The translations under genes were made by a program, and so were the position numbers. From the IMG/VR virus record IMGVR_UViG_2541047715_000004: a stretch of 64,000 nt of DNA. One strand, written 5' to 3'. This document shows positions 11,758 to 30,630 of the stretch, in pieces; the first letter of the stretch is position 1; the number at the start of each line of letters is the position of its first letter. This stretch comes from a virus. Lineage: Duplodnaviria > Heunggongvirae > Uroviricota > Caudoviricetes. The notes beneath the pieces were generated by a model. That model was not told the DNA's origin, did not search any database, and worked only from the letters and a program-made list of their open reading frames with translations.

Positions 11758-12372
11758 ATGTTCGGGATGTCAATTACTCAATCAGATGGAAGTTTGTGGA
11801 TGAGTCCTGAATTTACTCCGCAAAATCTGATTAATAAAGGGACAATGTCTACATCTAAAGGTTCTGTTTTTCAAACATCAATCCCATCAAACAAATCATG
11901 CTTTTTCTTCATAAAAAGCAGCAATAAGGCGAACATGATGTTTATTCATGAACATAGTAACGGATACAATGCTCTCAGATTGCATCAGGTAAATGGTAGC
12001 CCCGGAACAATAACAGTTTATGCTTTTTCTGATATGGTGTTACCACATTCTGGCTATGGCATTGCCATGTATAACAGCGCAGGCGCAATGGTGTATCACG
12101 GTGAGATGATGCCCCTTGATGCAAAACTTATCACTATTACTGACCCACAATTTACAATAGATATGGGGTATCCGTGCGCAGTAATGCCTGCTATGGTTGG
12201 GGTTTATAACTATAGACGAACCGATTACGACAGACCTGTCTATGTAACTATGACCGGTGCAACTGGAAACCAAGTATATAACGGTCAATGGTATTCCGGT
12301 AATGTCACATGGGATATTAAGAAGATTTATACAAACAAAATCCTGGTTATAAATACCTCAAAGTATGATTAG
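11758..12372 (+). CDS. hypothetical protein (beta-rich, N/Y/G/T-rich)
   Basis: ATG 11758 directly after previous stop; AT-rich. Confidence 0.4.
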   Translation: MFGMSITQSDGSLWMSPEFTPQNLINKGTMSTSKGSVFQTSIPSNKSCFFFIKSSNKANMMFIHEHSNGYNALRLHQVNGSPGTITVYAFSDMVLPHSGYGIAMYNSAGAMVYHGEMMPLDAKLITITDPQFTIDMGYPCAVMPAMVGVYNYRRTDYDRPVYVTMTGATGNQVYNGQWYSGNVTWDIKKIYTNKILVINTSKYD

Positions 12373-12475
12373 CAAATACCTTTATTTAAAGGATTGCCTG
12401 TTAATTTCTATTTAGCACCTTTTCATTTTTGAAATAATTGCACTATTAAACAAATCTTTTCTTAATGGTGCAATT

Positions 12476-12952
12476 ATGAATACAGCTCTTTCCATCATCG
12501 ACGATACCAACTCAAACACTGCTATCGATTATCGTCAGGAAATGAACGTCATCCACGAAATCGTAGCCGAGTGCGAGAAAGAGATCGCCTTCATGTATCA
12601 GGTTCACGACTTCGTTTATGGCGACGAACGCCACAACATGATTAATCGCCTGCTGCAACTGAACCATCGACCAGATGAAGAACGCTCACGTTTGAATCGA
12701 GCTTGGCTGGATAAAGTCGATCTGGAATGGGTGAAACAGAATATTTGGGCCGAGTACTGGAGGAAGGTCACGGATATGACTAACGTTTTGCTGATCATGC
12801 CAGCTTCCCGTCGCGACGAGTGGCGTGAGCAGTTTATAGAGGGCAAACAGGAAGTCATCAAAACTGACAGAACCGGCTACCAGATGAAGGTTAAAGAGTT
12901 CGTTGGTGTACCTGAGTTCAAAGTGGATACAAACATCCCTACGATGGTTTGA
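12476..12952 (+). CDS. hypothetical protein
   Basis: 158-aa ORF convergent with hsdR. Confidence 0.45.
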   Translation: MNTALSIIDDTNSNTAIDYRQEMNVIHEIVAECEKEIAFMYQVHDFVYGDERHNMINRLLQLNHRPDEERSRLNRAWLDKVDLEWVKQNIWAEYWRKVTDMTNVLLIMPASRRDEWREQFIEGKQEVIKTDRTGYQMKVKEFVGVPEFKVDTNIPTMV

Positions 12953-13010
12953 TCTGACAGCTATCTGCAATTTGCACAGATGTCTGCCAGATCTGGTTCA
13001 GATTAATACA

Positions 13011-16000
13011 CTATATCTGCCCACCTACTCCTTTGAACTTTTCAATAAACGTGACGATTTTCTGGAAAACGGTCTGTTTTTTCGTTTTATATTGCGGGTT
13101 TAACGGACTAAGTTTTGGTAATGTCTCGTTTAATTCTGTGCCATTTTCGGTGGCGTATTCGCGTTTTAAAGACGTGCGAATATAGCGTTTCGCCGCCTCT
13201 TCATTGAGATTTTCTTCTTTTATCAATGCTTCTGCTTCACGTTGCTGTTCGCGTTGAGCAAACGTAAAGAATGCCTCAATGATACTGGCTTTGTCTGGTA
13301 AATCATCCAGGTTCGTTTGCTGAATAAAATCGACCACCAGGCCCTCTTTCGCCCGGTTCCCCAGGCTTGAACGAATTAAGCGTTTGACCTCTTCGATCAT
13401 TTCGCCCTTGCCTTTATTTTGTCTGTTGTGTTCGAAAATCAGTCCAAGGATATAATCCAGGTTTATTTCCTGAGACTTCAGCAAATCGACCTCAAAAACT
13501 ACGTCATCCCAGTCAGTGGTTGATTTCTCTTTTTTCTCAGCTTCTTTCTCACGGCGCTGCCAGTCGCGAATATCGTTATAGGCAGAACGATAATCCTGAA
13601 TCTTGCGTTCAGCAGGGAGACGAATTGTTTGCAATTCAGCGAACTTTTCATCATCCACATAATGTTCTGCTTTGAATTTTTCTACCGCAACAGGATCGCT
13701 AAGATCGATTTGTTGCAGGGCTTTCAGCGTGGCAAATTCATCATAGTTTTGCAGGATGTTCTCGGCACGCAGGTATTCACCAAACAGTTTTACGAAGTCT
13801 TTCTTCTCTTTTTCACTTTCAATACTGGCAGGGTCAGGGAACCGTTGTTCCAGTTCTGAAACTACTGCCATAAAGCCGCGTTTAGCTTCACCAGTGGCAG
13901 CATCTGTAAAGCCTTCCATATACTCAGCATAACTCTTTTCTAACACCACATTTTTAGTATTTTTATCACCAAACAGCGTTATGGCATCAATGGTTGAGCG
14001 TTCCAGATCCCGAAAAGTGACGATGTTACCGAAGGTTTTAGTAGCGTCATAAATGCGGTTGGTACGGGAGAATGCCTGCATCAGGCCGTGAAAACGCAAG
14101 TTTTTATCGACGAATAGCGTGTTCAATGTTGGAGCGTCGAAGCCGGTTAAAAACATCCCAACGACAATTAACAGATCGATATCCTGATTTTTAACCCGTT
14201 GGGCTAAATCACGATAGTAGTTCTGAAAACCGTTACTGTCGGTGCTGAAGTTAGTTTTAAAATAGCTGTTATACTCACGAATTGCAGCGTCAAGAAACTC
14301 TTTAGCACTGCTGTCCATTGCGCTGGTATCAAAAGTTTCATCGGAAATTTCACCAATGGCATTTTGTTCTTCATTGGCGGCAAAGGAGAAGATTGTTGCA
14401 ACACGCAGCGGTTTATAGGTAGCCGATTTATTAGCTGCTTCCTCTTGTAACCGTTTAAACGTCGCGTAATAGGCTTTCGCGGCATCCACGCTACTCACTG
14501 CCAGCATGGCATTAAAGCCTTTGGAACCTGGGAAAGTACGGTGGGTCTTCTGGCGGAAGTTATTCAGAATATATTGCGTAATTTCCTGTATACGCATGGG
14601 ATGAAGAAATGCCTGCTGATTTTCAGCCGCACTCAGTTTTTTCTCGTCGGTTTCTGTCTCTAAAGATTTAAACTGTGGCCGCACATCGTTGTAGTCCACC
14701 TTGAATTTGAGCACTTTTTCATCACGAATCGCATCGGTAATTACATACGAATGCAATTCACGACCAAATACGCTGGCGGTCGTTTCTGAGCCTAAGGCGT
14801 TTTCCGGGAAAATAGGTGTGCCGGTAAAACCAAACTGATAATAGCGTTTGAATTTCTTCTTCAGGTTTTTCTGCGCTTCTCCAAACTGGCTGCGGTGACA
14901 TTCATCAAATATAAACACCACTTGCTGATTGTATACAGGCAGGTCGCTTTCTGCTTTCATCAGGTTATTAAGTTTCTGAATAGTGGTGACGATAATTTTG
15001 TTATCGTCCTTATCCAGATTGCGTTTAAGACCTGCGGTATTTTCCGAGCCGTTGACGCTGTCTGGCGAAAAACGCTTATATTCATTCATGGTCTGGTAAT
15101 CGAGGTCTTTCCTGTCGACCACGAAGAAGACTTTATCAATAAAGTCCAGCTCTGTTGCCAGACGCGCGGCTTTAAAGCTGGTGAGGGTTTTACCTGAACC
15201 GGTAGTGTGCCAGATATACCCACCGCTTTCCGGTTTTGACCAGTTCTTCGCTGTAAAGGAACTCTTAATTTTCCACAGAATGCGCTCAGTGGCGGCAATC
15301 TGGTACGGTCGCATCACCAGTAGCGTTTGGCTAACATCGAATACGCTGTAGTTCACTAAGACATTAAGCAGGGTATGTTTCTGGAAAAAGGTGGCGGTAA
15401 AGTCTTTGAGGTCTTTAATCAGCGTGTTGTCTGATTTCGCCCAATTCATGGTGAAGTCAAAACTGTTTTTATCGCGCTTTGTCGTGTTGGCAAAGTAACG
15501 GGTATCGGTGCCGTTGGAAATGACAAACAGTTGCAGATACTTAAACAGAGAATTTTCGCTGTTAAAACTCTCTTTGCTGTAACGATGTATCTGGTTAAAG
15601 GCCTCACGAATCGCCACGCCGCGCTTTTTCAGTTCGATTTGTACCAGCGGTAAGCCATTAACCAGGATCGTGACGTCATAACGGTTAGCATGAGAACCCG
15701 TCTGTTCAAACTGCTGGATAATCTGCACCTTGTTGCGCATGAGATTCTTTTTATCTATCAAATAGATGTTCTCAAGACGCTCGTCATCAAAAATAAAGTC
15801 GCAAATATAGTCGATATGGATTTTACGGGTCTTATCCAGGATGCCATCGCTCGGGTTATCCAGATACTGCTCCGTGAAACGCCGCCATTCGCTGTCATTA
15901 AACACCACACCATTGAGGTTCTGAAGCTGTTCCCGAACGTTGGCCAGCATCGCCGACTGAGATTTTACGGAAATAAATTCATAGCCCTGATTCCGCAGAT

Positions 16001-16127
16001 CCTGAATCAGTTCACGTTCCAGGTCCGATTCGCTCTGGTAGCTGTCGCCTGTTTGCTCGGCTTTGATGTACTTATCAAGAACGATAAAGTTATTGGATTC
16101 AGCAATGGTGTGTGTCTGATGAGTCAT
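13011..16127 (-). CDS. hsdR: type I restriction enzyme R subunit, type IC (EcoR124-like)
   Basis: 1038 aa; Walker [13 protein letters not shown]-box FDECHRS, helicase motifs; N-terminus [20 protein letters not shown] matches my recollection of EcoR124 HsdR. Confidence 0.95.
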
Positions 16128-16248
16128 AGCGCATCCTTTGTGCCGTCTGGCAAGGGCCGGAAGGGCTTTAAGGGCGACTTCCGGCGTGTAAAAAATAGTC
16201 TCTATATAGACCGGATGTTAAGGTGATCCGGTCGGTAGCAATGGTCAA

Positions 16249-17496
16249 TTAGTTACTGATAGTTTCAGGTTTGGGAAAACTGAACAGTAAATCACGATAG
16301 TACTCGTATTGTTTCTGGCGCAACTCGATTTCACGCGGAAGACCTTCGGTGATGGAATTGGTCAAAGCATCAAATTTATCCAGTAATTTCACTATTTTTT
16401 GTTGTTCAACTAGCGATCTTTCAGGAGAATCAGGAAATGGTACTGGTATCATAAGTTTTCTTAAGTTATCATTATAAAGTCTTTTAATAGTTCCACCTTC
16501 AGATATTCCCCATTTTGCTATTTTATAGAAATAGAATAAATATTTATTTAAAACTATTTTTTCATTATTTTCAATCCAGACAATATTGCTATCCTGGAAA
16601 TATGATTCCCTACCATCAAATATAACAGTCCTGCCGATGGTCCCACTGGCAGAAATCAATACTTCGCCAACTTTAGGATAACTATATTTTTCTTTAAATT
16701 CATTAAATAGTTTTCTAGATATATAGGAATCGGGTTCCTTACCAAATGTCCCAATTTTATAAAATGGAATCTCTCCCTCAGAAGATGTTTGTGATTTTAG
16801 GATTCGTTTACACATACGAACTTCACCAATTTCCCCCAAAGCTTTCCACTCAACCTCACCCTCTTTAAAACTCAACAACTGGTCGCGATAGTAGTTGTAT
16901 TGTTTTTTACGCATGCTAAGCTCAGCGGTAAGCTCAGCGGTAAGTGCAGTAAATTTATCCAGAATCCTGACGATTTCAGACTGGATAGCCAGCGACTTTT
17001 CCGGGTTGTTGGGGCAAGGGATGGGGATAAGTAATTTACCTATATCTTTAGCATACAAATGATAAACAGTAGAACCTTTAACCATTTGCAATATCTTTTT
17101 TTTGTTATTTATTATGAAATTACTTAGATATCTACCATCAACACCAGAGCATCTAATAATCAAAATATCGCCGCCTAAAATAACGCCACTTTCTTGAATG
17201 CAACTAGCTGTAGCCAAACCTCTTGGTGTAACGTCTGACGTTGGCATTAGAACATCATTTTTTTCAGATAGAATTGACTCATTGATTGCTTGGTTTGTTT
17301 TTGAGCATACTTTGTCAATTATGGGACCATAATGAGTGAAAAGCTCACCGTAATGAATACAATATCTATTGCCATCTGGAGTTATTTTTTCTTTAGGTAA
17401 AGACTTCCCTTTTAAAAAAGTTGCTAATTTATTTAATGCTACCCACTCAACCTCAGCCCCATCCAGCAGTTTTTCCAGATAACTCAGCTCGCTCAT
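16249..17496 (-). CDS. hsdS: type I R-M specificity subunit, type IC with two divergent TRDs
   Basis: Conserved N-terminal, central ([29 protein letters not shown]) and C-terminal ([41 protein letters not shown]) regions; AT-rich variable TRDs. Confidence 0.95.
16918..16941 (-). repeat. 2 x 12-bp tandem repeat in hsdS central region, encoding TAEL-TAEL
   Basis: + strand AAGCTCAGCGGT twice, then a degenerate third copy. Confidence 0.85.
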
Positions 17497-19055
17497 GCCT
17501 GTACCTCGCTACCTTCAATCTCAGCAACAATCGCATCAATATCTTTACGCAACTGGTCGATTTTGCTGACCGTGGTTTTCAGCTCAGCATTCAGCTCAGC
17601 GATATCGATAATTTCGCGAGTATCTTTCGCTTCCACATAGCTGCTCACCGACAGGTTATAGTCATTCGCGACAACAGTCTCAAACGCAACAGATTTCGCC
17701 AGATGAGCAACATCTTCCTTGCTGGCAAATACCTGCATAATCTGTTCGATATGAGCATCGGTCAGAATGTTGTTGTTAGTCTCTTTTTTGAACAGTTCGC
17801 TGGCATCAATAAACTGAACTTTGGTATCCGTTTTATGTTTAGACAGCACCAGAATATTGACGGCAATAGTGGTGCCAAAGAACAGATTCGGTGCCAGTGA
17901 AATCACGGTTTCGACATAGTTATTGTCGACCAGATACTGACGGATTTTCTGCTCCGCGCCGCCACGGTAAAAAATGCCTGGGAAGCAGACAATCGCAGCG
18001 CGACCTTTGGCCGAAAGATAGTTCAGCGCATGTAATACAAACGCAAAGTCAGCTTTGGATTTGGGGGCCAGAACGCCAGCCGGGGCAAAACGTTCATCGT
18101 TAATCAGCGTCGGGTCATCGCTGCCAATCCATTTCACCGAATACGGCGGGTTAGAAACGATGGCATCAAACGGTTTTTCATCTCTGAAGTGCGGCTCAGT
18201 CAGTGTATTACCCAGCTTGATATCAAACTTGTCGTAGTTGATGTTGTGCAAAAACATGTTCATACGCGCCAGGTTATAGGTCGTATGGTTGATTTCCTGA
18301 CCAAAAAAACCTTCTTCGATGATATGGTCATCAAACTGTTTTTTCGCCTGCAACAACAGCGAACCGGAGCCTGCTGCCGGGTCGTAGATTTTGTTAACGT
18401 GGGTCTGCCCGTGCATAGCCAGTTGTGCAATCAGCTTAGAGACGTGCTGCGGTGTAAAGAACTCGCCGCCGGACTTACCGGCATTCGCCGCATAGTTAGA
18501 AATCAGGAACTCATAGGCGTCACCGAACAGGTCAATCTGATGTTCATGGAAGTCACCAAGTTTTAGCCCTTCAACCCCTTTCAGAACCGCAGCCAAGCGG
18601 GCATTTTTATCTTTAACGGTGTTACCCAGGCGGTTACTGGTGGTATCGAAATCAGCAAACAAACCTTTGATGTCAGCTTCTGAAGGATAACCGTAAGCAG
18701 AACTTTCGATAGCAACGAAGATGCTGTTTAAATCTGCATTCAGTCTGTCATTAGTATTTGCTTTCGCAGCTACGTTGCAGAAAAGCTGACTGGGGTAGAT
18801 GAAGTAGCCTTTAGTTTTGATGGCATCGTCTTTAATGTCATCAGTAATTACGCTGTCATCCAGTTTCGCATAACAGATACTGTCATCACCGGCTTCAATA
18901 TAACTGGAAAAATTTTCGCTGATAAAACGGTAAAAAAGCGCGCCCAAAACGTACTGCTTAAAATCCCATCCATCGACTGAACCCCTGACATCGTTAGCAA
19001 TTTGCCAGATCTGGCGATGAAGCTCTGCACGTTGTTGAATACTTGTCATTTTCAT
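17493..19055 (-). CDS. hsdM: type I R-M N6-adenine DNA methyltransferase subunit
   Basis: 520 aa; motif [14 protein letters not shown]; stop overlaps hsdS start (ATGA). Confidence 0.95.
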
Positions 19056-19407
19056 CCACTTATTTCAGGTTTAAGTAATTGGATGTGATTCTACAGCAAC
19101 TTGGATGCTTTAGCAGTTCGGACATTAGGTAACGAATGACCTAATTAGAGCTTTTTGGAAAAGCGGTATTGTCGGTGCGATTTTAGCTATGTCTGGGTGT
19201 GCGATGGTGCAATACAATGACGGTGAAAAGGTTAGCATCCAGTTCGATGGCTGGTATTGGCTTGGATAGCCTGCCAAAAAACGCAGATAAAGCCTGTCAG
19301 CAATACGGAAAGTCTAAAGCTGTATATCTGCATAGCGCGAACGCTAACCCTCATCTTGCGCCTGGTACGGGTGTTCAGAATACCATCTGGAAATGTGAGC
19401 CTTAAAC

Positions 19408-19659
19408 ATGAGCAACTGGAACATAGCAGCCAAAAGCCAGGAAGAAAGGAATAAAGTTAACGTTGACCTGGCTGCCAGGGGGGTTGCCTACAAAGAGCGA
19501 TTGAACATACCCGTCATAGCGGAACAGGTAGCCCGTGAGCAACCTGAGAACCTGCGCACCTATTTCATGGAACGGCTACGGCACTACCGGCAGTTAAGCC
19601 TCCTGCTGCCAAAAGGAAACGATCCGGTATATCAGAAAGAAGATATAGCCAAAAAATAA
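19408..19659 (+). CDS. hypothetical protein
   Basis: 83-aa ORF between hsdM promoter region and UmuD'-like gene. Confidence 0.4.
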
Positions 19660-19719
19660 CGCGCCACCAGACGAGCGCAAAGCATCGCGCTATTGCACAC
19701 TTCAAGCATCTTTAATGTA

Positions 19720-19739
19720 TACTGTATGGATAAACAGTA
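19720..19739 (+). promoter_or_regulatory. LexA operator (SOS box)
   Basis: TACTGTATGGATAAACAGTA fits CTGT-N8-ACAG; 19 bp upstream of ATG 19758. Confidence 0.65.
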
Positions 19740-19757
19740 CTCTGAGGTGAAAACGCT

Positions 19758-20147
19758 ATGGGCTTCCCTTCTCCTGCGGCGGATTATGCTGAGAGCCGTA
19801 TTTCTCTTGATCAGCAGATAATTAGACATCCTTCAGCGACCTACTTCATGAGGGCAGCTGATAGTCATCATCGTGAGGGAATATTACAGGGTGCATTGCT
19901 GGTGGTCGATTCCTCACTTACCCCGGTTGATGGTTCTCTGCTTGTATGCGCTCTGGATGGGGAATATCGCGTAAAAAGATACCGGAAGTACCCACGTCAG
20001 CATCTGGAGGATTTAAGAACCGGTAAGAAGGAAGCATTGCCAAAGGATGACGATGGATGCACGGGCAGCAATGCCGTGTTTGGTGTGATCACTCACATTA
20101 TCAACGACGCAAGAAGTGGCGAGTTTGATGATTGTCCCGTGATGTAG
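19758..20147 (+). CDS. UmuD'-like S24 peptidase-fold protein lacking the cleavable N-terminal arm (HumD-like)
   Basis: Starts MGFPSPAADY, equivalent to UmuD residue Gly25; Ser (ADS) and Lys (RVKRY) dyad positions conserved; GAGGTG RBS. Confidence 0.7.
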   Translation: MGFPSPAADYAESRISLDQQIIRHPSATYFMRAADSHHREGILQGALLVVDSSLTPVDGSLLVCALDGEYRVKRYRKYPRQHLEDLRTGKKEALPKDDDGCTGSNAVFGVITHIINDARSGEFDDCPVM

Positions 20148-20158
20148 GAGAACTGATT

Positions 20159-20184
20159 AGGCGGTGCAATGCACCGCCTTTTAT
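20159..20184. terminator. bidirectional terminator between convergent UmuD'-like gene and apbC
   Basis: AGGCGGTGCAATGCACCGCCT followed by TTTAT. Confidence 0.6.
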
Positions 20185-21284
20185 CACACTGCGCGGAATG
20201 CGATTTCGCCAGGTATTACTTCACCTTGCCAATACATTTGGGCGGCAACGCGATCTGCGAGGTCACGATAAATAGCCGTAAATTCGCTATCTGGACGACT
20301 AATAACGGTTGGTGTTCCGTTATCCAGATCTTCACGAAGAGAGATATGAAGTGGCATTTGGCCTAACAACTGCGTGTTGTATTTCTCGGCCAGTTTCTGT
20401 GCGCCACCGGTGCCAAAAATTGGCTCGTGATGACCGCAGTTACTGCAAATATGCACACTCATGTTTTCGACGATACCCAGTACCGGCACTTCGACTTTTT
20501 CGAACATCACAATGCCTTTCTTCGCATCGATCAGCGCGATGTCTTGCGGCGTAGTTACCACAACCGCACCAGTTACAGGAATGTTCTGCGCCAGCGTCAA
20601 CTGAATATCACCAGTGCCCGGCGGCATATCGAGAACGAGATAGTCCAGATCAGGCCATAGAGTTTCCTGCAACATCTGCATCAGCGCCTTGCTGGCCATC
20701 GGTCCACGCCACACCATTGCATTGTCGTCGGTGACCAGATAACCAATAGAGTTGGTTGCCAGGCCATGAGACATGATAGGTGCCATGTGAGTACCGTCAG
20801 GTGAGGTTGGACGTTGGTTTTCCGCGCCCAGCATGGTTGGAATTGATGGACCATAGATATCGGCATCCAAAATACCAACTTTCGCACCTTCAGCAGCCAA
20901 CGCCAGTGCCAGGTTTACCGCCGTGGAGGATTTACCCACGCCGCCCTTGCCTGAGCTGACGGCGATAATGTTCTTAACGCCATTAATGCCTGGTTGGTTT
21001 TTGACGCGCTTAAGCGTGGCAATGTTGTACGACAGCTTCCAGTCAATAGCCTTTGCGCCAGTGATACGGAGCAGATCACCACTACATTGCTCTTTCAGGT
21101 CTTCAAAAGGCTTATTCCACACGAAAGGCATGATTAGTTCGACATGCAGTGTGTCATCCATCAACGCAACATGGTGTAACGCTTTAAGCGTAGTCAGGTT
21201 GTGTTTCAGGGTTGGGTGCTGAAAATTAGCCAGCGTACCGGCTACCATTGCTCTCAGGGCATCCGGCGATTTGGACTCGCTCAT
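20184..21284 (-). CDS. apbC: Fe-S cluster carrier ATPase ApbC/Mrp
   Basis: 366 aa, GKGGVGKS P-loop; near-identical to E. coli Mrp as I recall it. Confidence 0.95.
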   Translation of the reverse strand: MSESKSPDALRAMVAGTLANFQHPTLKHNLTTLKALHHVALMDDTLHVELIMPFVWNKPFEDLKEQCSGDLLRITGAKAIDWKLSYNIATLKRVKNQPGINGVKNIIAVSSGKGGVGKSSTAVNLALALAAEGAKVGILDADIYGPSIPTMLGAENQRPTSPDGTHMAPIMSHGLATNSIGYLVTDDNAMVWRGPMASKALMQMLQETLWPDLDYLVLDMPPGTGDIQLTLAQNIPVTGAVVVTTPQDIALIDAKKGIVMFEKVEVPVLGIVENMSVHICSNCGHHEPIFGTGGAQKLAEKYNTQLLGQMPLHISLREDLDNGTPTVISRPDSEFTAIYRDLADRVAAQMYWQGEVIPGEIAFRAV

Positions 21285-21441
21285 CCCGTCTCCTTTATTT
21301 TAATTTGCGCAATTGTCGCCTTGTAGTGTACTCCAGCTACGACATTTAATCATTTATGAGAAATGCTGTTATCACATGGCAGACATAAGGCCATTTTGTT
21401 ACTATCAAGCCCCTTTTCACTACAAAGAAGTAATGCCTACT

Positions 21442-23475
21442 ATGACCCAAGTCGCGAAGAAAATTCTGGTGACGTGCGCGCTGCCGTACGCTAACGGCTC
21501 AATCCACCTCGGCCATATGCTGGAGCACATCCAGGCTGATGTCTGGGTTCGTTACCAGCGAATGCGCGGCCACGAGGTTAATTTCATCTGTGCCGACGAT
21601 GCCCACGGTACGCCGATCATGCTGAAAGCACAGCAGCTTGGTATCACACCGGAGCAGATGATTGGCGAAATGAGTCAGGAACACCAGACTGATTTCGCAG
21701 GCTTTAACATCAGCTATGACAACTATCACTCGACGCACAGCGAAGAGAACCGCCAGCTGTCTGAGCTTATCTATACTCGCCTGAAAGAGAACGGTTTTAT
21801 TAAAAACCGCACTATCTCTCAGTTGTACGACCCGGAAAAAGGCATGTTCCTGCCGGATCGTTTTGTGAAAGGCACCTGCCCGAAATGTAAAGCGCCAGAT
21901 CAATACGGCGATAACTGTGAAGTCTGCGGCGCAACATATAGCCCGACTGAATTGATCGAGCCGAAATCGGTGGTTTCTGGCGCTACCCCGGTAATGCGTG
22001 ATTCCGAACACTTCTTCTTTGATCTGCCTTCTTTCAGCGAAATGTTGCAGGCATGGACCCGCAGCGGCGCGTTGCAGGAGCAGGTGGCGAACAAAATGCA
22101 GGAATGGTTTGAATCCGGCCTGCAACAGTGGGATATCTCCCGAGATGCGCCTTACTTCGGTTTTGAAATTCCGAACGCGCCGGGCAAATATTTCTACGTC
22201 TGGCTGGACGCGCCGATTGGCTACATGGGTTCCTTCAAGAATCTGTGCGACAAACGCGGCGACACTACCAGCTTCGACGAATACTGGAAGAAAGACTCCA
22301 CCGCCGAGCTGTACCACTTCATCGGTAAAGATATCGTTTACTTCCACAGCCTGTTCTGGCCTGCCATGCTGGAAGGCAGCAACTTCCGCAAGCCGACCAA
22401 CCTGTTTGTTCACGGCTATGTGACGGTGAACGGCGCGAAGATGTCCAAGTCTCGCGGCACCTTTATTAAAGCCAGCACCTGGCTGAATCATTTTGACGCC
22501 GACAGCCTGCGTTACTACTACACTGCGAAACTCTCTTCGCGCATTGATGATATCGATCTCAACCTGGAAGATTTTGTTCAGCGCGTGAATGCCGATATCG
22601 TGAACAAAGTGGTTAACCTGGCCTCCCGTAATGCAGGTTTTATCAACAAACGTTTTGACGGCGTGCTGGCAAGCGAACTGGCTGACCCGCAACTGTACAA
22701 AACCTTCACTGATGCCGCTGAAGTGATTGGTGAAGCGTGGGAAAGCCGCGAATTTGGCAAAGCTATCCGTGAAATCATGTCACTGGCTGACCTGGCTAAC
22801 CGCTATGTTGATGAACAGGCTCCGTGGGTGGTGGCGAAGCAGGAAGGCCGCGATGCCGACCTGCAGGCGATTTGCTCTATGGGCATTAACCTGTTCCGCG
22901 TGCTGATGACGTACCTGAAACCGGTACTGCCGAAACTGACTGAACGTGCAGAAGCATTCCTGAATACAGAACTGACCTGGGATGGTATCCAGCAACCGCT
23001 GCTGGGCCATAAAGTGAATCCGTTCAAGGCACTGTATAACCGTATCGATATGAAACAGGTGGAAGCACTGGTGGAAGCATCCAAAGAAGAAGTGAAAGCC
23101 ACAGCTGCACAGGTAACTGGCCCACTGGCTGACGACCCGATTCAGGAAACCATCACCTTTGACGACTTCGCCAAAGTTGACCTGCGTGTGGCGCTGATTG
23201 AAAACGCGGAGTTTGTCGAAGGTTCTGACAAACTGCTGCGTCTGACACTGGATCTCGGTGGTGAAAAGCGTAATGTCTTCTCAGGCATCCGTTCTGCTTA
23301 TCCAGACCCACAGGCACTGATTGGTCGTCACACCATTATGGTGGCTAACCTGGCTCCGCGTAAAATGCGCTTCGGTATCTCCGAAGGCATGGTGATGGCT
23401 GCTGGCCCCGGCGGGAAAGATATCTTCCTGTTAAGCCCGGATGCTGGTGCTAAACCAGGCCACCAGGTTAAGTAA
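21442..23475 (+). CDS. metG: methionine--tRNA ligase
   Basis: 677 aa from ATG 21442; HLGH and KMSKS motifs; near-identical to E. coli MetG as I recall it; divergent from apbC as in E. coli. Confidence 0.95.
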
Positions 23476-23494
23476 TTAAACAACCTCTGTTCGC

Positions 23495-23521
23495 AATGCC
23501 CGGCAACACGCTGGGCATTTT
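23495..23521 (+). terminator. putative terminator after metG
   Basis: AATGCCC...GGGCATT hairpin followed by TTTT. Confidence 0.45.
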
Positions 23522-23556
23522 CATATAGACACAACCCCTTCTGACTTTAACAAACC

Positions 23557-23575
23557 CTAAAACAATTTGTTTTCT
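23557..23575 (+). promoter_or_regulatory. family 1 palindrome (AAAACAATTTGTTTT)
   Basis: First phage-type motif right of metG, about 80 bp after the metG stop. Confidence 0.5.
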
Positions 23576-23607
23576 ACCTTTTGTTGATTGAGATAATAAG
23601 CCACATA

Positions 23608-23626
23608 AGAAAACAAATTGTTTCGG
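23608..23626 (+). promoter_or_regulatory. family 1 palindrome (GAAAACAAATTGTTTC)
   Basis: Second copy, 11 bp before ATG 23637. Confidence 0.5.
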
Positions 23627-23636
23627 AGTTGTTGAA

Positions 23637-23936
23637 ATGTTGAACATTACCCAAGCCTACCAGGTGGCATTGATCAGTTCATCTCATACATCAGAGGAAG
23701 ATGCTCGCCGATTCATGATCGCAAGCAATGAGCTGGATTGGGTTTCACAAATTGATGGCGGTTGTATTGTCCACGCCGGGTTACAGGATGATGTCTGGAA
23801 AGATGACTTGCGTCGATATGGTATATCCGAAGGCGCGATTGCTAACATTCAGAAAGTACTTGATGTAGGCTTTGACTCTGTACATTTTGATTGTGGTGCA
23901 CCGGTCGTTGAAGGGCTAGAGTGCTGGCAATGGTAA
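23637..23936 (+). CDS. hypothetical protein
   Basis: 99-aa ORF after tandem family 1 palindromes. Confidence 0.45.
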   Translation: MLNITQAYQVALISSSHTSEEDARRFMIASNELDWVSQIDGGCIVHAGLQDDVWKDDLRRYGISEGAIANIQKVLDVGFDSVHFDCGAPVVEGLECWQW

Positions 23937-23972
23937 TCCGGCAATCGCTTCATACTAGATAACGGAGAATTT

Positions 23973-24158
23973 ATGCTTAAAGAAGACTCATATCTACTAA
24001 AGGCGCTTGAAATGCGTGGCGTTGAACCTACAGTGAAAAACGCTCACGATATCTACCTTCAGTTTTCACCGGAGCTGAAACGGCTCATAAATCAATACGG
24101 GGTTAATGACTCAAGTGTTAAAGCAATGATAGATGATGAATTAGACCATCTCATCTAA
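23973..24158 (+). CDS. hypothetical protein
   Basis: 61-aa ORF with GGAG RBS. Confidence 0.35.
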   Translation: MLKEDSYLLKALEMRGVEPTVKNAHDIYLQFSPELKRLINQYGVNDSSVKAMIDDELDHLI

Positions 24159-24310
24159 TCGTTTCCTATGATAATGGTTTTCACTTTGAGATTGTTATTT
24201 TTCATAGCTAAAGCTGATGTTTGTGGAAGGTGGATTGATAAACGGATGCGTATTTAGGTTATACAAGTGAGAAAATTGATAATATATAAACGCGATTTTT
24301 ATGTGATGGA

Positions 24311-24880
24311 ATGGATGTGATGGAAACCCAGAACCAACAAACAAAACCTCTGAATAACATTTATGCGTGGATTCTAGCGTTCATGCCTTTCTTCTTTGGA
24401 GTATCGCCGGAAGAGTATACCAATTACGCTATTATAATTGGGGGTGTAACTACCATCGGTTTGTTAGTAGCTGACAGAATGGCTCTATCGGAGTCTGGCT
24501 GTGAACCACCTTCAATTCTATGGGGGGTATTCCTCCTGCCTGTCTATCTCTGGAAGCGCGCGACTATTACAAAAGGCAGCAGAGTGCCATTTATCATAAT
24601 CGTTGCGTCGCTGGCTTGGATTATCTTCATCGGCATCCCACACAAGGACGAGGTTGCTCTTGAAGAAGCAGCCTGCCCTCTCGTGACAACTATTCTGAAA
24701 GAGAATAACGGTTCGACTGCACCAAAATGTATGAAGGTGACAATAGAGGACAAGGTGACGGATAAGTTCTATAGAGCAACGGCTACACTAGACAATGGTA
24801 ATGACATTAACATTACTCTGGAACTTACCGGCGACAGGAACTTCTACGTCCGTGTTCCAAATGTTTATCTGAACAACTAA
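24311..24880 (+). CDS. hypothetical integral membrane protein
   Basis: Several hydrophobic helices. Confidence 0.45.
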   Translation: MDVMETQNQQTKPLNNIYAWILAFMPFFFGVSPEEYTNYAIIIGGVTTIGLLVADRMALSESGCEPPSILWGVFLLPVYLWKRATITKGSRVPFIIIVASLAWIIFIGIPHKDEVALEEAACPLVTTILKENNGSTAPKCMKVTIEDKVTDKFYRATATLDNGNDINITLELTGDRNFYVRVPNVYLNN

Positions 24881-25949
24881 CGGTTGTAACTTATTGATAA
24901 TGGCGGTCACAATTTGATTCTTTTCTATAAGAATCCGTTGATCGCCACTACTCCCCTACCATGCCCGCAATCACATCCTTAAATATCAATAAGTTATAGT
25001 TGTTTATACAATCAAGAAAACAACTGAATAACAGATCAACGAAACATCAACGCTTTCACCCGATTTGGTCTAAAAAATTGACGTTTTCACACATCACTGC
25101 TTATACCCGTAATTCTACACAGCAGACAGCGCCACAGCGTCCAATTTTCACCACAGACGACCCAACACACTACCAACAAAAACACATGCTCAAAATCGTT
25201 CCCGTTGCGTTACATAACCATATAAACAACTTATTTTCAGGCATAACAAAACAACTAAATAACACATATGCCATTCCCAAAACAACCAACCTCGTTATGG
25301 CAGGCTACCGAAAAGACCCACCTCTTCTTCCCAGGCTACCGGACAACCAACCTAACTTTCACAGGCAATCCGAAAACATTCATACGCGCGATACCCACGA
25401 CACGCCATTACCCAAACAGCGAAGAAACACCAGAATCACTGAAACCCCAACGAAGCCTGTAACCGCAAGGTTTCTCTCAATCCCAAAAGACACGAAGCAT
25501 AACAATCACGGGAAACGCCATTACCCAATACACGAATAACTACAAAAGCCTTTCACACACTCCAGACAAACAACTCAAACACAATAACGAAAGGAATCGC
25601 CCACCTGCCATTACTCCATACACGGAGAAGAACAATCACCAAAACGACGAGAACACCCCATAGAAGAACCACCGCAAAACTAACGAAACCACATACACCG
25701 ACAGAGAAAACAACACACCCAATTCACCAACAGAAATAGTCGCCGTATAGAACGTTCTGGAAGGAGTGAGCATTAACGCCTATAGAGAGGTTGAGACAGA
25801 TAAAACACGAAGAAAACACAACATGTATAGCGAAGAAGCCAGGTATGTATAAGTGGGGAGGGAAGGAGGGGTGTCGCCTCCTTTTTCGTATTTATTCAAC
25901 TCCTGATTTTATCCCCCGTAAAACCCCTACGGTCAGCCTTCGGTCCATA

Positions 25950-26085
25950 CAGGGAAAAGGTTGCATCCCGCTACAGAAACGGCTGGGTTGCCTTCGGGGA
26001 ACGGCTGGAGGTTTTCAGGGAAACGGTCGAGTTGCCTGTGTGGATTTCGGGAGAAGGCTCGATGCCGGTTCAGGAACGGTGGAGT
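25950..26085 (+). repeat. iteron-like direct repeats (consensus about GGGAAACGGCTGG), 5-6 copies at about 22-bp spacing
   Basis: cagggaaaaggttgc, cagaaacggctgg, cggggaacggctgg, cagggaaacggtcga, cgggagaaggctcga, caggaacggtgga. Confidence 0.6.
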
Positions 26086-26415
26086 ACCGGTATAGCGAGA
26101 GGGAGAGTTGCGGCTATCCACCTGTAATCTGCGGGAAGAAGAGTGGCGCTCACGTGCAGGCGGACTAACTTACCGTTGGACTCCCTCTGAATGCCCAGTT
26201 ACAGCGTAATTGTGCCAGACAGCCAACGGGTCACAATCGATTTCAGTAGGTTTTCGGGGAGATGATTATTCTGCCCACCAGCCACCTTCGGCCACTAAAT
26301 CAGAATAATGTAAAAAGTGTTCTCGGTACTGAACCTGAAAACTCACTGCCAAAACCACATTCACCGGAATAAAATCCTTTTTCGCCTGTGCGTTATTGCG
26401 ATAATAACACCATCA

Positions 26416-26434
26416 AGAAAACATGTTGTTTAAG
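26416..26434 (+). promoter_or_regulatory. family 1 palindrome (GAAAACATGTTGTTT)
   Basis: Upstream of ATG 26444. Confidence 0.45.
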
Positions 26435-26443
26435 GATTGCTTT

Positions 26444-29214: not shown

Positions 29215-29701
29215 ATTCGCCTTTATGTAGAAAAAACATCGGGAAGCTGGTGGAATCCAACCAGCGGTTGTCGGACAGGTGAGCGGGGAAAATTATGATG
29301 ACTTTCGTCGCCTGAGACATCCAGATTTCTTTCGTAGCGTAATCACATATGTGATTAAGTGGTGTGATTATGTGAAAAATCACGCGCACATAATACGAGA
29401 GCGGATACGGAACAAAACAAAATGCCGATCCGCGCCGACAATTAAACGCGGATCACATAGCAAGAATAAAAGCCAATGATTAACCATACACCATAACGCA
29501 ATATAACGCGATTTAAGCGCGTTAATGCGCTAAGTAATGGGTATGTACTGGTAAGGATATAAAAGCGCGTCTATGGCGTTATTTTGGCGCTTATTTTTAT
29601 GTTGTTGGTGTGAGTCAAAGACAATAAAAAAAGCGCCATCATTGGCGCGTTATGGTGGAAGTATTGGAAACGAAAAAAGCGCCCATAGTGGGCGCTCGAT
29701 T

Positions 29702-29932
29702 TTATTTATGTAAACTGATTTCAAATCCCATTTCTACAAACGCTTTTAACATTAAAAATATATCAGCGTCATTCATGTCTGCTTTTTTTCGCTCCTGGTC
29801 GCTCAATAAGTCAATTTTGCGCGTCGTTTCATCTATAAGCTCGACTGCGCGCCCAGCGTAACCAGCGATCCCAGCGATGCGATTAACAAAATATTCATTA
29901 CGTACGTTAACGCCAGCGATAAGAATAAACAT
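29702..29932 (-). CDS. hypothetical small protein
   Basis: AAGGAG RBS; minus-strand terminator GCGCCCACTATGGGCGC plus T6 right after stop. Confidence 0.45.
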   Translation of the reverse strand: MFILIAGVNVRNEYFVNRIAGIAGYAGRAVELIDETTRKIDLLSDQERKKADMNDADIFLMLKAFVEMGFEISLHK

Positions 29933-29979
29933 GATTAAGCTCCTTAAAAGCGCCCATAGTGGGCGCAAGATTCCATTAA

Positions 29980-30630
29980 TTACGCTTTGAAAGCATCAGC
30001 CAGATAGTTATAGAAATCATTTTTAATGAAGCGATATTGCTGCGTACCAGCTTTTGCGCTTCCCATTCCTTTGACTTTCTCAACAAGTCCAAGACGTTCG
30101 CAAAGATTGATCAACTGGTTGGCTTGAGTATAGCCAGCGTCCAATTTAATTTCGCACGCTTTTTTAGCTTCATTCATTAAATCGAAAACAGCGCCATTGG
30201 TGAACGTGTCGATCTCGTCGTTAATCATATCGATTAAAGCGAATACACGAGATCCTGACATATCAGCGATGGAATAAACGCATTTACCAGCTTTAATTGA
30301 TTTAACCAGATAGACCAGTTTTTCCAGTGAATAACTATTAGTCATTGCATCACGGAAAAATACTTCTGGCGCTTGTTTACTTGCTTTGATCGCATAGTAG
30401 AAAACAGAGCATAATTTTTCGTCTTCTACTGCGTTCACAACGTTGTTGATGAAGTAAGCAAGTTTAGTGGTCGCAGCTTGCATGTTTGCTTTGTCTGCTT
30501 TTGTGTGCGTACCATTTTTATAATGTTCGTTATATGTTTGAGTTGCCAGATCTGCTTTTTCGCGCAGCTCGTCGGATACAATGGCAGCAGCTTCAATGAT
30601 GGATTTTTTAGAAATGATAATGTTAGCCAT
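29980..30630 (-). CDS. hypothetical protein
   Basis: 216-aa ORF followed by the same GCGCCCACTATGGGCGC hairpin. Confidence 0.5.
   Translation of the reverse strand: MANIIISKKSIIEAAAIVSDELREKADLATQTYNEHYKNGTHTKADKANMQAATTKLAYFINNVVNAVEDEKLCSVFYYAIKASKQAPEVFFRDAMTNSYSLEKLVYLVKSIKAGKCVYSIADMSGSRVFALIDMINDEIDTFTNGAVFDLMNEAKKACEIKLDAGYTQANQLINLCERLGLVEKVKGMGSAKAGTQQYRFIKNDFYNYLADAFKA

Follow-up and report, generated by a model that had tools for sequence, protein, structure and literature searches.

Sequence evidence for an old humD-apbC-metG cargo and a recent type IC hsd-hot island on an SSU5-like Escherichia phage-plasmid

Introduction

How do a type I restriction-modification (R-M) system and two housekeeping genes of a bacterial chromosome come to lie between the two arms of one phage? 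The question is raised by a 64,000-nucleotide stretch of tailed-phage DNA (Caudoviricetes; IMG/VR record IMGVR_UViG_2541047715_000004), the whole of which is called the window here. An original prediction from its letters described positions 12953-23556 as one block containing hsdMSR, a UmuD'-like gene and the pair apbC-metG. It left three options: a phage-plasmid that had captured chromosomal DNA plus a defence cassette, a prime-type element, or a chimeric assembly. The first option proved essentially right, but the prediction had merged modules of different age. With high confidence, the window is best explained as part of an SSU5-like phage-plasmid in which an old humD-apbC-metG cargo stands next to a recent type IC hsd-hot island.

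The element and its backbone

Positions 1-62163 of the window were collinear at 97-99% identity with CP056788.1, a complete circular plasmid of Escherichia coli with a size of 111 kb. Over 12000-24500 this plasmid is 99.5% identical to the window and is its near-twin. With the same interval as the query, 40 plasmids reached at least 80% coverage. The annotation of CP056788.1 places nrdAB, thyA, DHFR (dihydrofolate reductase), dam and rnhA on the left arm, and ParB-like genes, terminase, portal, capsid, tape-measure and other tail genes on the right arm. The ParB-like genes fall in the segment matching the window. With collinearity over 62 kb and phage genes on both sides, the two flanks are those of one phage, as had been predicted. 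The twin records are complete circular plasmids of 105-115 kb typed as rep_cluster_488/IncFIB, and the replication gene is located outside the 64-kb window.

The nearest phage records were Cyrano (pLF82), CMS-2020a and PhiR41_1, and humD-apbC-metG was found in all three. Cyrano is collinear with the window at 97-99%. The gene order of SSU5 around DUF4942 matches that of the window, but SSU5 does not have humD, apbC and metG. The collinear backbone, with structural, nucleotide-metabolism and early genes, is that of the SSU5 supergroup. On this sequence evidence, the window is part of an SSU5-like Escherichia phage-plasmid (pLF82/Cyrano, pECOH89, pSLy3/pWPMR2-type); the earlier guess of an SSU5/pHCM2-like element was correct. 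In PMC3999498, PMC9928086 and bioRxiv 10.1101/2025.09.12.675607, relatives of SSU5 type are described as non-conjugative 'phage-like plasmids' of about 110 kb. The plasmid pLF82, which is Cyrano, forms virions, and its copy number is 5.5 per cell (PMC9928086). The element of the window may also produce virions. The flagged block lies within an accessory region that is plastic and is bounded by the backbone DUF4942 gene on one side and the DUF5983/DUF1380 genes on the other.

The conserved humD-apbC-metG module

The right part of the block was composed of the following features.

19758-20147, plus strand: humD, a UmuD'-like gene of the S24 peptidase fold (P1 HumD type; Pfam Peptidase_S24; about 87% identity to P1 humD)
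20160-20183, between the convergent humD and apbC: GC-rich hairpin with T-runs, AGGCGGTGCAATGCACCGCCTTTT, without chromosomal homology
20184-21284, minus strand: apbC (mrp), Fe-S cluster carrier P-loop NTPase of 366 amino acids, a diverged second copy (Pfam ParA/NUBPL, 2e-102)
21285-21441: divergent apbC-metG promoter region, presumably captured with the genes, ultraconserved among phage-plasmids
21442-23475, plus strand: metG, full-length methionyl-tRNA synthetase (MetRS) of 677 amino acids, a diverged second copy (Pfam tRNA-synt_1g, Anticodon_3 and C-terminal tRNA_bind)
23494-23522, plus strand: intrinsic-terminator-like hairpin, AATGCCCGGC...GCTGGGCATTTT, 3' of metG

The genes named in the original prediction (hsdMSR, the UmuD'-like gene and apbC-metG) were all present and intact by the map of open reading frames (ORFs), Pfam and PADLOC, and so was hot. 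HumD is without the N-terminal part of UmuD, and its S24 match begins at residue 1. The hairpin at 20160-20183 is likely a bidirectional terminator. In the translation of MetG the HLGH (HIGH-type) and KMSKS motifs and the Cys/zinc knuckle CPKC...CEVC are all visible, and the protein matches E. coli MetRS structures. With its catalytic motifs, zinc knuckle, anticodon-binding domain and C-terminal dimerisation/tRNA-binding domain, MetG is a class I MetRS of the E. coli type. No tRNA gene that could pair with metG was found within the window. The 60-nt stretch 23476-23535, which contains the hairpin after metG, has a folding energy of -20.1 kcal/mol. This hairpin had no match in 82 chromosomal loci and is not chromosomal in origin.

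The segment humD-apbC-metG (19710-23475) was found in all relatives examined, the exception being the 62-kb E. albertii plasmid CP043239, which is without humD. The search for related phage-plasmids carrying metG and apbC, which had been asked for, was productive: apbC-metG was found at 95-99.4% identity on 202 plasmids, which come from E. coli, Shigella and E. albertii, and about 4% of complete E. coli genomes carry the module. Because it is near-universal in the relatives, is present on 202 plasmids and is missing from SSU5, humD-apbC-metG is taken as conserved cargo of the Escherichia/Shigella clade rather than a recent insert. Judged from this distribution, the segment is old and lineage-wide.

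Shorter records with apbC-metG also exist: CP043239.1 from E. albertii (62 kb, circular), in which a polysaccharide deacetylase gene occupies the usual humD position, and CP024264.1 (72 kb, a linear record). They may be degraded or rearranged derivatives of phage-plasmids, and CP024264 is perhaps simply incomplete.

Divergence from the chromosome and selection

The original prediction regarded apbC and metG as near-identical to E. coli chromosomal genes. This was not the case. Compared with K-12, metG showed 93.6% nucleotide and 98.5% amino-acid identity (10 conservative substitutions), and apbC showed 82% nucleotide and 93.8% amino-acid identity; omega was 0.023 for each gene. The metG of the window was compared with 5426 complete E. 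coli genomes. The values were 92.6-94.0% for 5424 chromosomes and 95-98.7% for 215 plasmid copies, and nothing lay between. The chromosomal mrp-metG locus has the identical gene order and divergent arrangement. Chromosomal homology was confined to the ORFs and the intergenic region, and neither yehE nor yehF, which adjoin the locus on the chromosome, is present in the window. The comparison by BLASTN that had been proposed gave exact edges, which are the two stop codons (20188 and 23476), but the identity between them is not near-exact.

Among the phage-plasmid copies, synonymous changes outnumbered non-synonymous ones (for example 108 versus 2 in metG and 42 versus 2 in apbC, where the synonymous count reached at most 42 and the non-synonymous count ranged from 0 to 2), and omega was 0-0.045. 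Both genes were intact in 11 of 11 copies. They are under strong purifying selection. In pTIC (MF554642.1), an insertion annotated as 'DNA replication protein' is present at the apbC 5' end, at the window-equivalent position 21273. It is probably an insertion sequence (IS). Therefore, apbC or the shared promoter region can be disrupted in nature.

The recent hsd-hot island

The left part of the block has a different history. When the window was compared by blastn with four relatives without hsd (Cyrano, a Shigella sonnei plasmid, E. coli AP023193 and the E. albertii plasmid CP099875), homology broke at 12949|12950 and resumed at 19705-19712. The single insert up to 23556 in the original prediction was too long, as the truly variable part ends at about 19709. 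The features of this part and its left border are as follows.

12476-12952, plus strand: truncated backbone DUF4942 gene, of which the 5' third remains (158 of 561 codons); its SSU5 annotation is 'DNA methyltransferase'
12950-19709: variable island of accessory genes, with hsdRSM, a small ORF and hot, in place of the rest of DUF4942 and the ead/Ea22/DUF551 genes of relatives
13011-16127, minus strand: hsdR, type IC (EcoR124-type) restriction subunit of 1038 amino acids (Pfam HSDR_N, SWI2_SNF2, T1R_D3-like and EcoR124_C)
16249-17496, minus strand: hsdS, specificity subunit (two stretches of Pfam Methylase_S; PADLOC Specificity_I)
17493-19055, minus strand: hsdM, methyltransferase subunit (Pfam HsdM_N and N6_Mtase; PADLOC MTase_I)
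19217-19405, plus strand: small ORF of 62 amino acids, part of the island, annotated hypothetical in pTIC, no PADLOC match
19408-19659, plus strand: hot, homologue of the DNA polymerase III theta subunit (P1-type; Pfam DNA_pol3_theta)

The DUF4942 gene is full length (1686 bp, 561 codons) in Cyrano, AP023193, CP099875 and SSU5, and in the relatives without hsd it is followed by small genes of ead/Ea22/DUF551 type. Only 158 of its codons are left in the window, and the relatives have the full gene with the small genes. Therefore, 12950-19709 was interpreted as a replacement island. The remaining stump (12476-12952) gave no Pfam match. The hsd-hot arrangement occurs in about 40 of roughly 200 metG-bearing plasmids, and pTIC is 99.83% identical to the window up to its insertion at the apbC 5' end. 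The hot gene has 87% nucleotide identity to P1 hot and is absent from the relatives without hsd. A repeat scan at the island junctions gave no convincing IS or att-like repeats. The island is recent and variable.

The genes hsdM, hsdS and hsdR are all intact, and hsdM and hsdS overlap. HsdR was detected by PADLOC as REase_I at 1612 bits, its EcoR124_C domain (PF12008) at 7e-72, and it matched EcoR124 HsdR structures over the full length (for example 2w00 at 2274 bits). The HsdS translation contains two target-recognition domains and a central TAELTAEL repeat. TAEL repeats in HsdS are a mark of type IC, known from EcoR124I/II. Because of the full-length EcoR124 HsdR match, the EcoR124_C domain and the TAELTAEL repeat, the cassette is assigned to type IC, the EcoR124 family. 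It is predicted to restrict DNA in an ATP-dependent manner and to methylate N6-adenine at a bipartite site. The island core (13011-19154) has a counterpart at 95-97% identity in the P1-like phage vB_EcoM-673R5, whose hsd cassette lies between pmgS and phd/doc, and matches were also obtained in 1162 plasmids that span all mobility classes. The part of HsdS with the target-recognition domains was a non-matching gap against vB_EcoM-673R5 and the other plasmids. Therefore, the recognition sequence of the window's HsdS probably differs from those of most related cassettes.

The invariant intergenic region and mosaic ancestry

Among 11 copies, only 4 of the 157 sites between apbC and metG were variable (21339, 21342, 21390 and 21434). 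For comparison, 62 of 367 third positions of apbC, 221 of 678 third positions of metG and 31 of 161 downstream non-coding sites varied, which corresponds to 17-33% of the third codon positions and 19% of the downstream non-coding DNA. The constraint on the intergenic region against these classes had Fisher P values from 1e-6 to 2e-18. Its architecture resembles that of Citrobacter/Salmonella (135 bp align at 77-78% identity, and about 25 nt of them are missing from Escherichia), and only the 47 bp adjoining the metG start are Escherichia-like. A consensus scan of 18900-23800 for promoters and terminators gave matches no more numerous than in shuffled sequence.

The ancestry of the two genes is discordant. 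The metG of the window is 93.6% identical to that of E. coli and 93.1% to that of E. albertii, and these two are 93.2% identical to each other. In contrast, apbC is about 82% identical to those of E. coli, E. albertii and Citrobacter alike, and E. coli and E. albertii apbC share 89%. A donor scan of GTDB genome contigs with MetG listed matches from E. albertii, Citrobacter and Enterobacter among others; E. fergusonii, E. marmotae and the cryptic clades were not among them. No apbC donor closer than 82.6% was found among the matches listed in the GTDB contig scan. An ApbC protein search on 90% clusters, which was uninformative, listed the protein itself (P0003, 100%) and no other protein above about 95% amino-acid identity. 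Phage-plasmids with identical apbC have metG genes that differ by 3-5%. By neighbour-joining, K-12 metG nests among the phage-plasmid alleles, whereas for apbC the phage-plasmid copies group in a tight clade that lies outside Escherichia.

Tracts identical to K-12 were seen in metG of the S. sonnei plasmid (344 nt; P about 3.5e-6, assuming uniform divergence) and of an ST131 plasmid (237 and 191 nt). The window's own metG had no recent E. coli conversion tract, its longest identical run being 74 nt. Between the window and CP056788.1, apbC and the intergenic region are 100% identical, and all 37 metG differences are in the 3' 1.2 kb (22254-23457). Therefore, these clustered differences were interpreted as an allele-swap tract, which ends where the chromosomal-type homology ends.

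Taken together, apbC-metG may be an evolutionary mosaic that is still being rewritten, a tentative reading that we consider close to evenly balanced. According to it, apbC and most of the promoter region would come from an enterobacterial donor other than E. coli or E. albertii, and metG would have been repeatedly overwritten through homologous exchange with the host chromosomal metG and with other phage-plasmid alleles. The essential housekeeping gene metG would then be a recombination hot spot on a mobile element. The 157-bp promoter region would be kept nearly unchanged by selection, and this would imply a specific regulatory input.

Palindromes and neighbouring features

Two families of palindromes had been reported on both arms, and both were recovered there. 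The sites are as follows.

10090, 10819, 23560, 23611, 26903, 27806, 28570 and 37457: family 1 palindrome AAACAAWTTGTTT, on both arms and zero inside the block
23560-23623, plus strand: two of these operator-like palindromes AAACAAWTTGTTT, 5' of the next backbone gene, DUF5983 (23637-23936)
2138, 27307, 34111, 46398 and 10 weaker sites: second family TAAGTAWWTACTTA

Family 1 has 8 matches in the window against 0.39 expected, and the palindrome at these eight sites can also be written as (G)AAAACAAnTTGTTT(TC). Three of them were inspected directly (10090, 10819 and 23611), and each is located about 25 nt 5' of a plus-strand ATG of early or accessory genes. The family probably represents the binding sites of one shared regulator. 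The apbC-metG and hsd modules are without it. From the metG stop (23475) to the first right-arm palindrome (23560) there are 85 bp, close to the distance of about 80 bp that had been given. The second family has 14 matches (up to two mismatches) against 0.64 expected, on both arms including the structural-gene region. A further motif 5' of hsdM, TTAAGTAATT at 19071, had been read as phage-type and as a sign that hsd is embedded in phage DNA. It is a half-site and was not enriched (10 matches versus 4.9 expected), and 19071 falls inside the imported hsd cassette (13011-19154). It was therefore dropped as a phage signature.

Several observations were made to the right of the block. A second small variable patch was located at 23937-24892, where homology to Cyrano and the E. 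albertii plasmid ends at 23936 and resumes at 24893. It contains an ORF of 189 amino acids (24311-24880) with a hydrophobic, membrane-protein-like appearance. At this patch, relatives have a different gene or, in AP023193, IS26. The next stretch, 24881-26440, is about 1.5 kb without a credible ORF, and no CDS (coding sequence) is annotated there in the twin plasmid. On its plus strand, 25000-25730 is A+C-rich and G+T-poor (GC skew -0.28, AT skew +0.35) and is followed by a G-rich, stem-rich part. No Rfam match, tRNA or tandem repeat was found in 24881-26440, and the relatives conserve the sequence from 24893 onward. The hairpin-containing element AAAAGCGCCCATAGTGGGCGC is present at 29675-29709 and again, 271 bp away, at 29946-29980. 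The two copies are 86% alike and have the appearance of repeated terminators. No Rfam family reached the gathering threshold in the window.

Discussion

The analysis points with high confidence to an SSU5-like phage-plasmid whose old cargo and recent island have been acquired separately. An ancestor of the Escherichia/Shigella clade would have captured a 3.29-kb chromosomal fragment composed of apbC, the shared divergent promoter region and metG. The fragment would later have been trimmed to its ORFs and would have gained new terminators. Selection would then have kept the module, giving lysogens a second functional MetRS and ApbC. Expression of both would come from the module's own conserved promoter region and at the copy number of the plasmid, which in Cyrano is about 5 per cell. 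Given the roughly 5.5 copies of Cyrano in each cell, lysogens should have a metG dosage that is raised several-fold. The module would act as lysogenic conversion: it would supply a spare MetRS, and ApbC is probably a selected partner. More recently, the complete hsdRSM cassette, which circulates on conjugative plasmids and P1-like phage-plasmids, would together with hot have replaced part of DUF4942 and the ead/Ea22-type genes. The hsd system would methylate lysogen DNA and restrict unmodified incoming DNA, and this would protect the host and the element from competing phages and plasmids.

The origin of the block could be explained in other ways. A misjoining of chromosomal apbC-metG and a plasmid hsd cassette into a phage contig is suggested by the host-like genes in the middle of a phage and by the abrupt switches of strand orientation. 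However, the junctions recur at 98-99.8% in dozens of independently assembled complete circular plasmids, humD-apbC-metG is present in about 200 plasmids and several phage records, and the apbC/metG sequence is the chromosomal allele of none of the 5426 E. coli genomes. Such recurrence of the junctions across independent complete assemblies excludes misassembly, whose probability is practically nil. Two separate elements on both sides of a normal chromosomal locus are excluded as well, because the window is collinear with circular replicons of about 110 kb and the chromosomal flanks are missing. A recent prime-type pick-up, in which aberrant recombination or transduction moved the genes from the chromosome of the E. 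coli strain now hosting the element, would account for the same gene order and divergent arrangement as at the chromosomal mrp-metG locus, and the K-12-identical tracts in some phage-plasmid metG alleles are in line with it. Against this, every E. coli chromosome is 6.4% (metG) and 18% (apbC) away, the intergenic region is non-Escherichia in architecture, no chromosomal flank such as yehE/yehF was retained beyond the stop codons, and the module is common to phage-plasmids whose own sequences differ by 2-5%. Recent prime capture is excluded by this divergence together with the trimmed edges and the distribution, and is considered very improbable.

The benefit of the module is a separate matter. 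The spare metG and apbC might mainly serve the phage, by Met-tRNA charging and Fe-S maturation in lytic growth (for example for its own class Ia ribonucleotide reductase). In a variant of this idea, they would be a shield against stress or toxins acting on methionyl-tRNA metabolism, and host persistence would be a by-product. The many nucleotide-metabolism genes (nrdAB, thyA and DHFR) fit a theme of metabolic self-sufficiency, and purifying selection on both genes and the ultraconserved regulatory region are also compatible with benefit to the phage. But SSU5 and other relatives manage without metG and apbC, the chromosomal-type promoter region has been kept while the backbone operator palindromes are missing from apbC-metG, and the phenotype reported in the literature is found in the lysogen. 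Service to the phage, with its variant included, is therefore judged unlikely. Much less probable still is the idea that apbC-metG is carried along neutrally and currently has no function. The chromosome already supplies both essential functions, and the pTIC insertion at the apbC 5' end is one counter-example to retention; on the other side stand an omega of 0-0.045, the intactness of all 11 copies and the maintenance in about 200 plasmids.

Some points nevertheless weigh against an old cargo that serves the lysogen. The sequence comparisons establish anatomy, boundaries, distribution, divergence, selection and intactness; expression, aminoacylation, restriction and persistence of the window's element are drawn from inference or from the literature. 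In the published account, the phenotype was strongest for a 'mutated' pWPMR2 allele. The copy on the S. sonnei plasmid LR213459 has 8-10 non-synonymous changes versus 0-4 in that of the window, and therefore the window allele may behave differently. No donor of the captured fragment emerged among the matches listed, and the benefit could be one to the phage instead of the host.

According to the summary in PMC12452169, Tam et al. 2024 (medRxiv 10.1101/2024.10.27.24316207) reported a multi-copy, highly variable metG on the SSU5-type pWPMR2 of S. sonnei. In the same account, expression of this metG gave a sub-population predisposed to acquiring cephalosporin resistance and promoted persister formation. 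The metG of the window may have an effect on antimicrobial persistence. The survey in bioRxiv 10.1101/2025.09.12.675607 describes SSU5-type phage-plasmids as common in S. sonnei and E. coli, and R-M systems on those of clade J (pSLy3-like) in E. coli/Shigella. A phage-plasmid-borne metG and R-M on SSU5-type elements are already published. On the other hand, the mosaic module with its metG hot spot and the ultraconserved intergenic region may be new observations.

A host gene inside a phage is here conserved cargo of a clinically relevant family, not an artefact or a fresh capture. The family is common in multidrug-resistant S. sonnei, and its extra metG has been linked to antimicrobial persistence. 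The discordant ancestry, the chromosome-identical tracts and the invariant promoter can be used as handles on how and why a mobile element keeps an aminoacyl-tRNA synthetase. If exchange also runs from plasmid to chromosome, phage-plasmids would be vectors remodelling an essential aminoacyl-tRNA synthetase gene across Escherichia/Shigella. The R-M island shows that one pool of defence cassettes serves SSU5-type and P1-type phage-plasmids as well as conjugative plasmids.

Comparison with known systems

The closest known systems are pLF82/Cyrano, pECOH89, pSLy3, pWPMR2 and pTIC, which share the backbone, its order and humD-apbC-metG with the window at 97-99.8% identity. Where the window has hsdRSM-hot, a full-length DUF4942 gene and ead/Ea22-type genes are present in Cyrano, in the S. 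sonnei plasmid and in many other elements. The metG allele of the window is a distinct mosaic compared with other SSU5-type phage-plasmids, with a top match of 98.7%. Like pWPMR2, the window has a second metG on an SSU5-type phage-plasmid that differs from the chromosomal allele. Plasmid LR213459 of S. sonnei, which served as a stand-in and is not established as pWPMR2, shares the module, and its metG is 96.3% identical to that of the window. In bioRxiv 10.1101/2025.09.12.675607, pWPMR2-like elements (clade K) are reported to be without defence systems, whereas a type I R-M system is present in the window.

The chromosomal mrp(apbC)-metG locus of Enterobacteriaceae has the divergent pair and the promoter region in common with the window, but the window shows no flanking synteny, diverged genes and an intergenic region of Citrobacter/Salmonella type. 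Compared with the hot-lxr-humD accessory genes of P1, hot and humD are each about 87% identical to their P1 counterparts, and lxr is absent from the window. Here humD belongs to the backbone of the SSU5-type clade, whereas hot arrived with the island. Finally, the window resembles EcoR124I/II of plasmid R124 in its plasmid-borne hsdM/hsdS/hsdR set, the full-length HsdR match and the TAELTAEL repeat, and it differs from most related cassettes in the target-recognition domains of HsdS.

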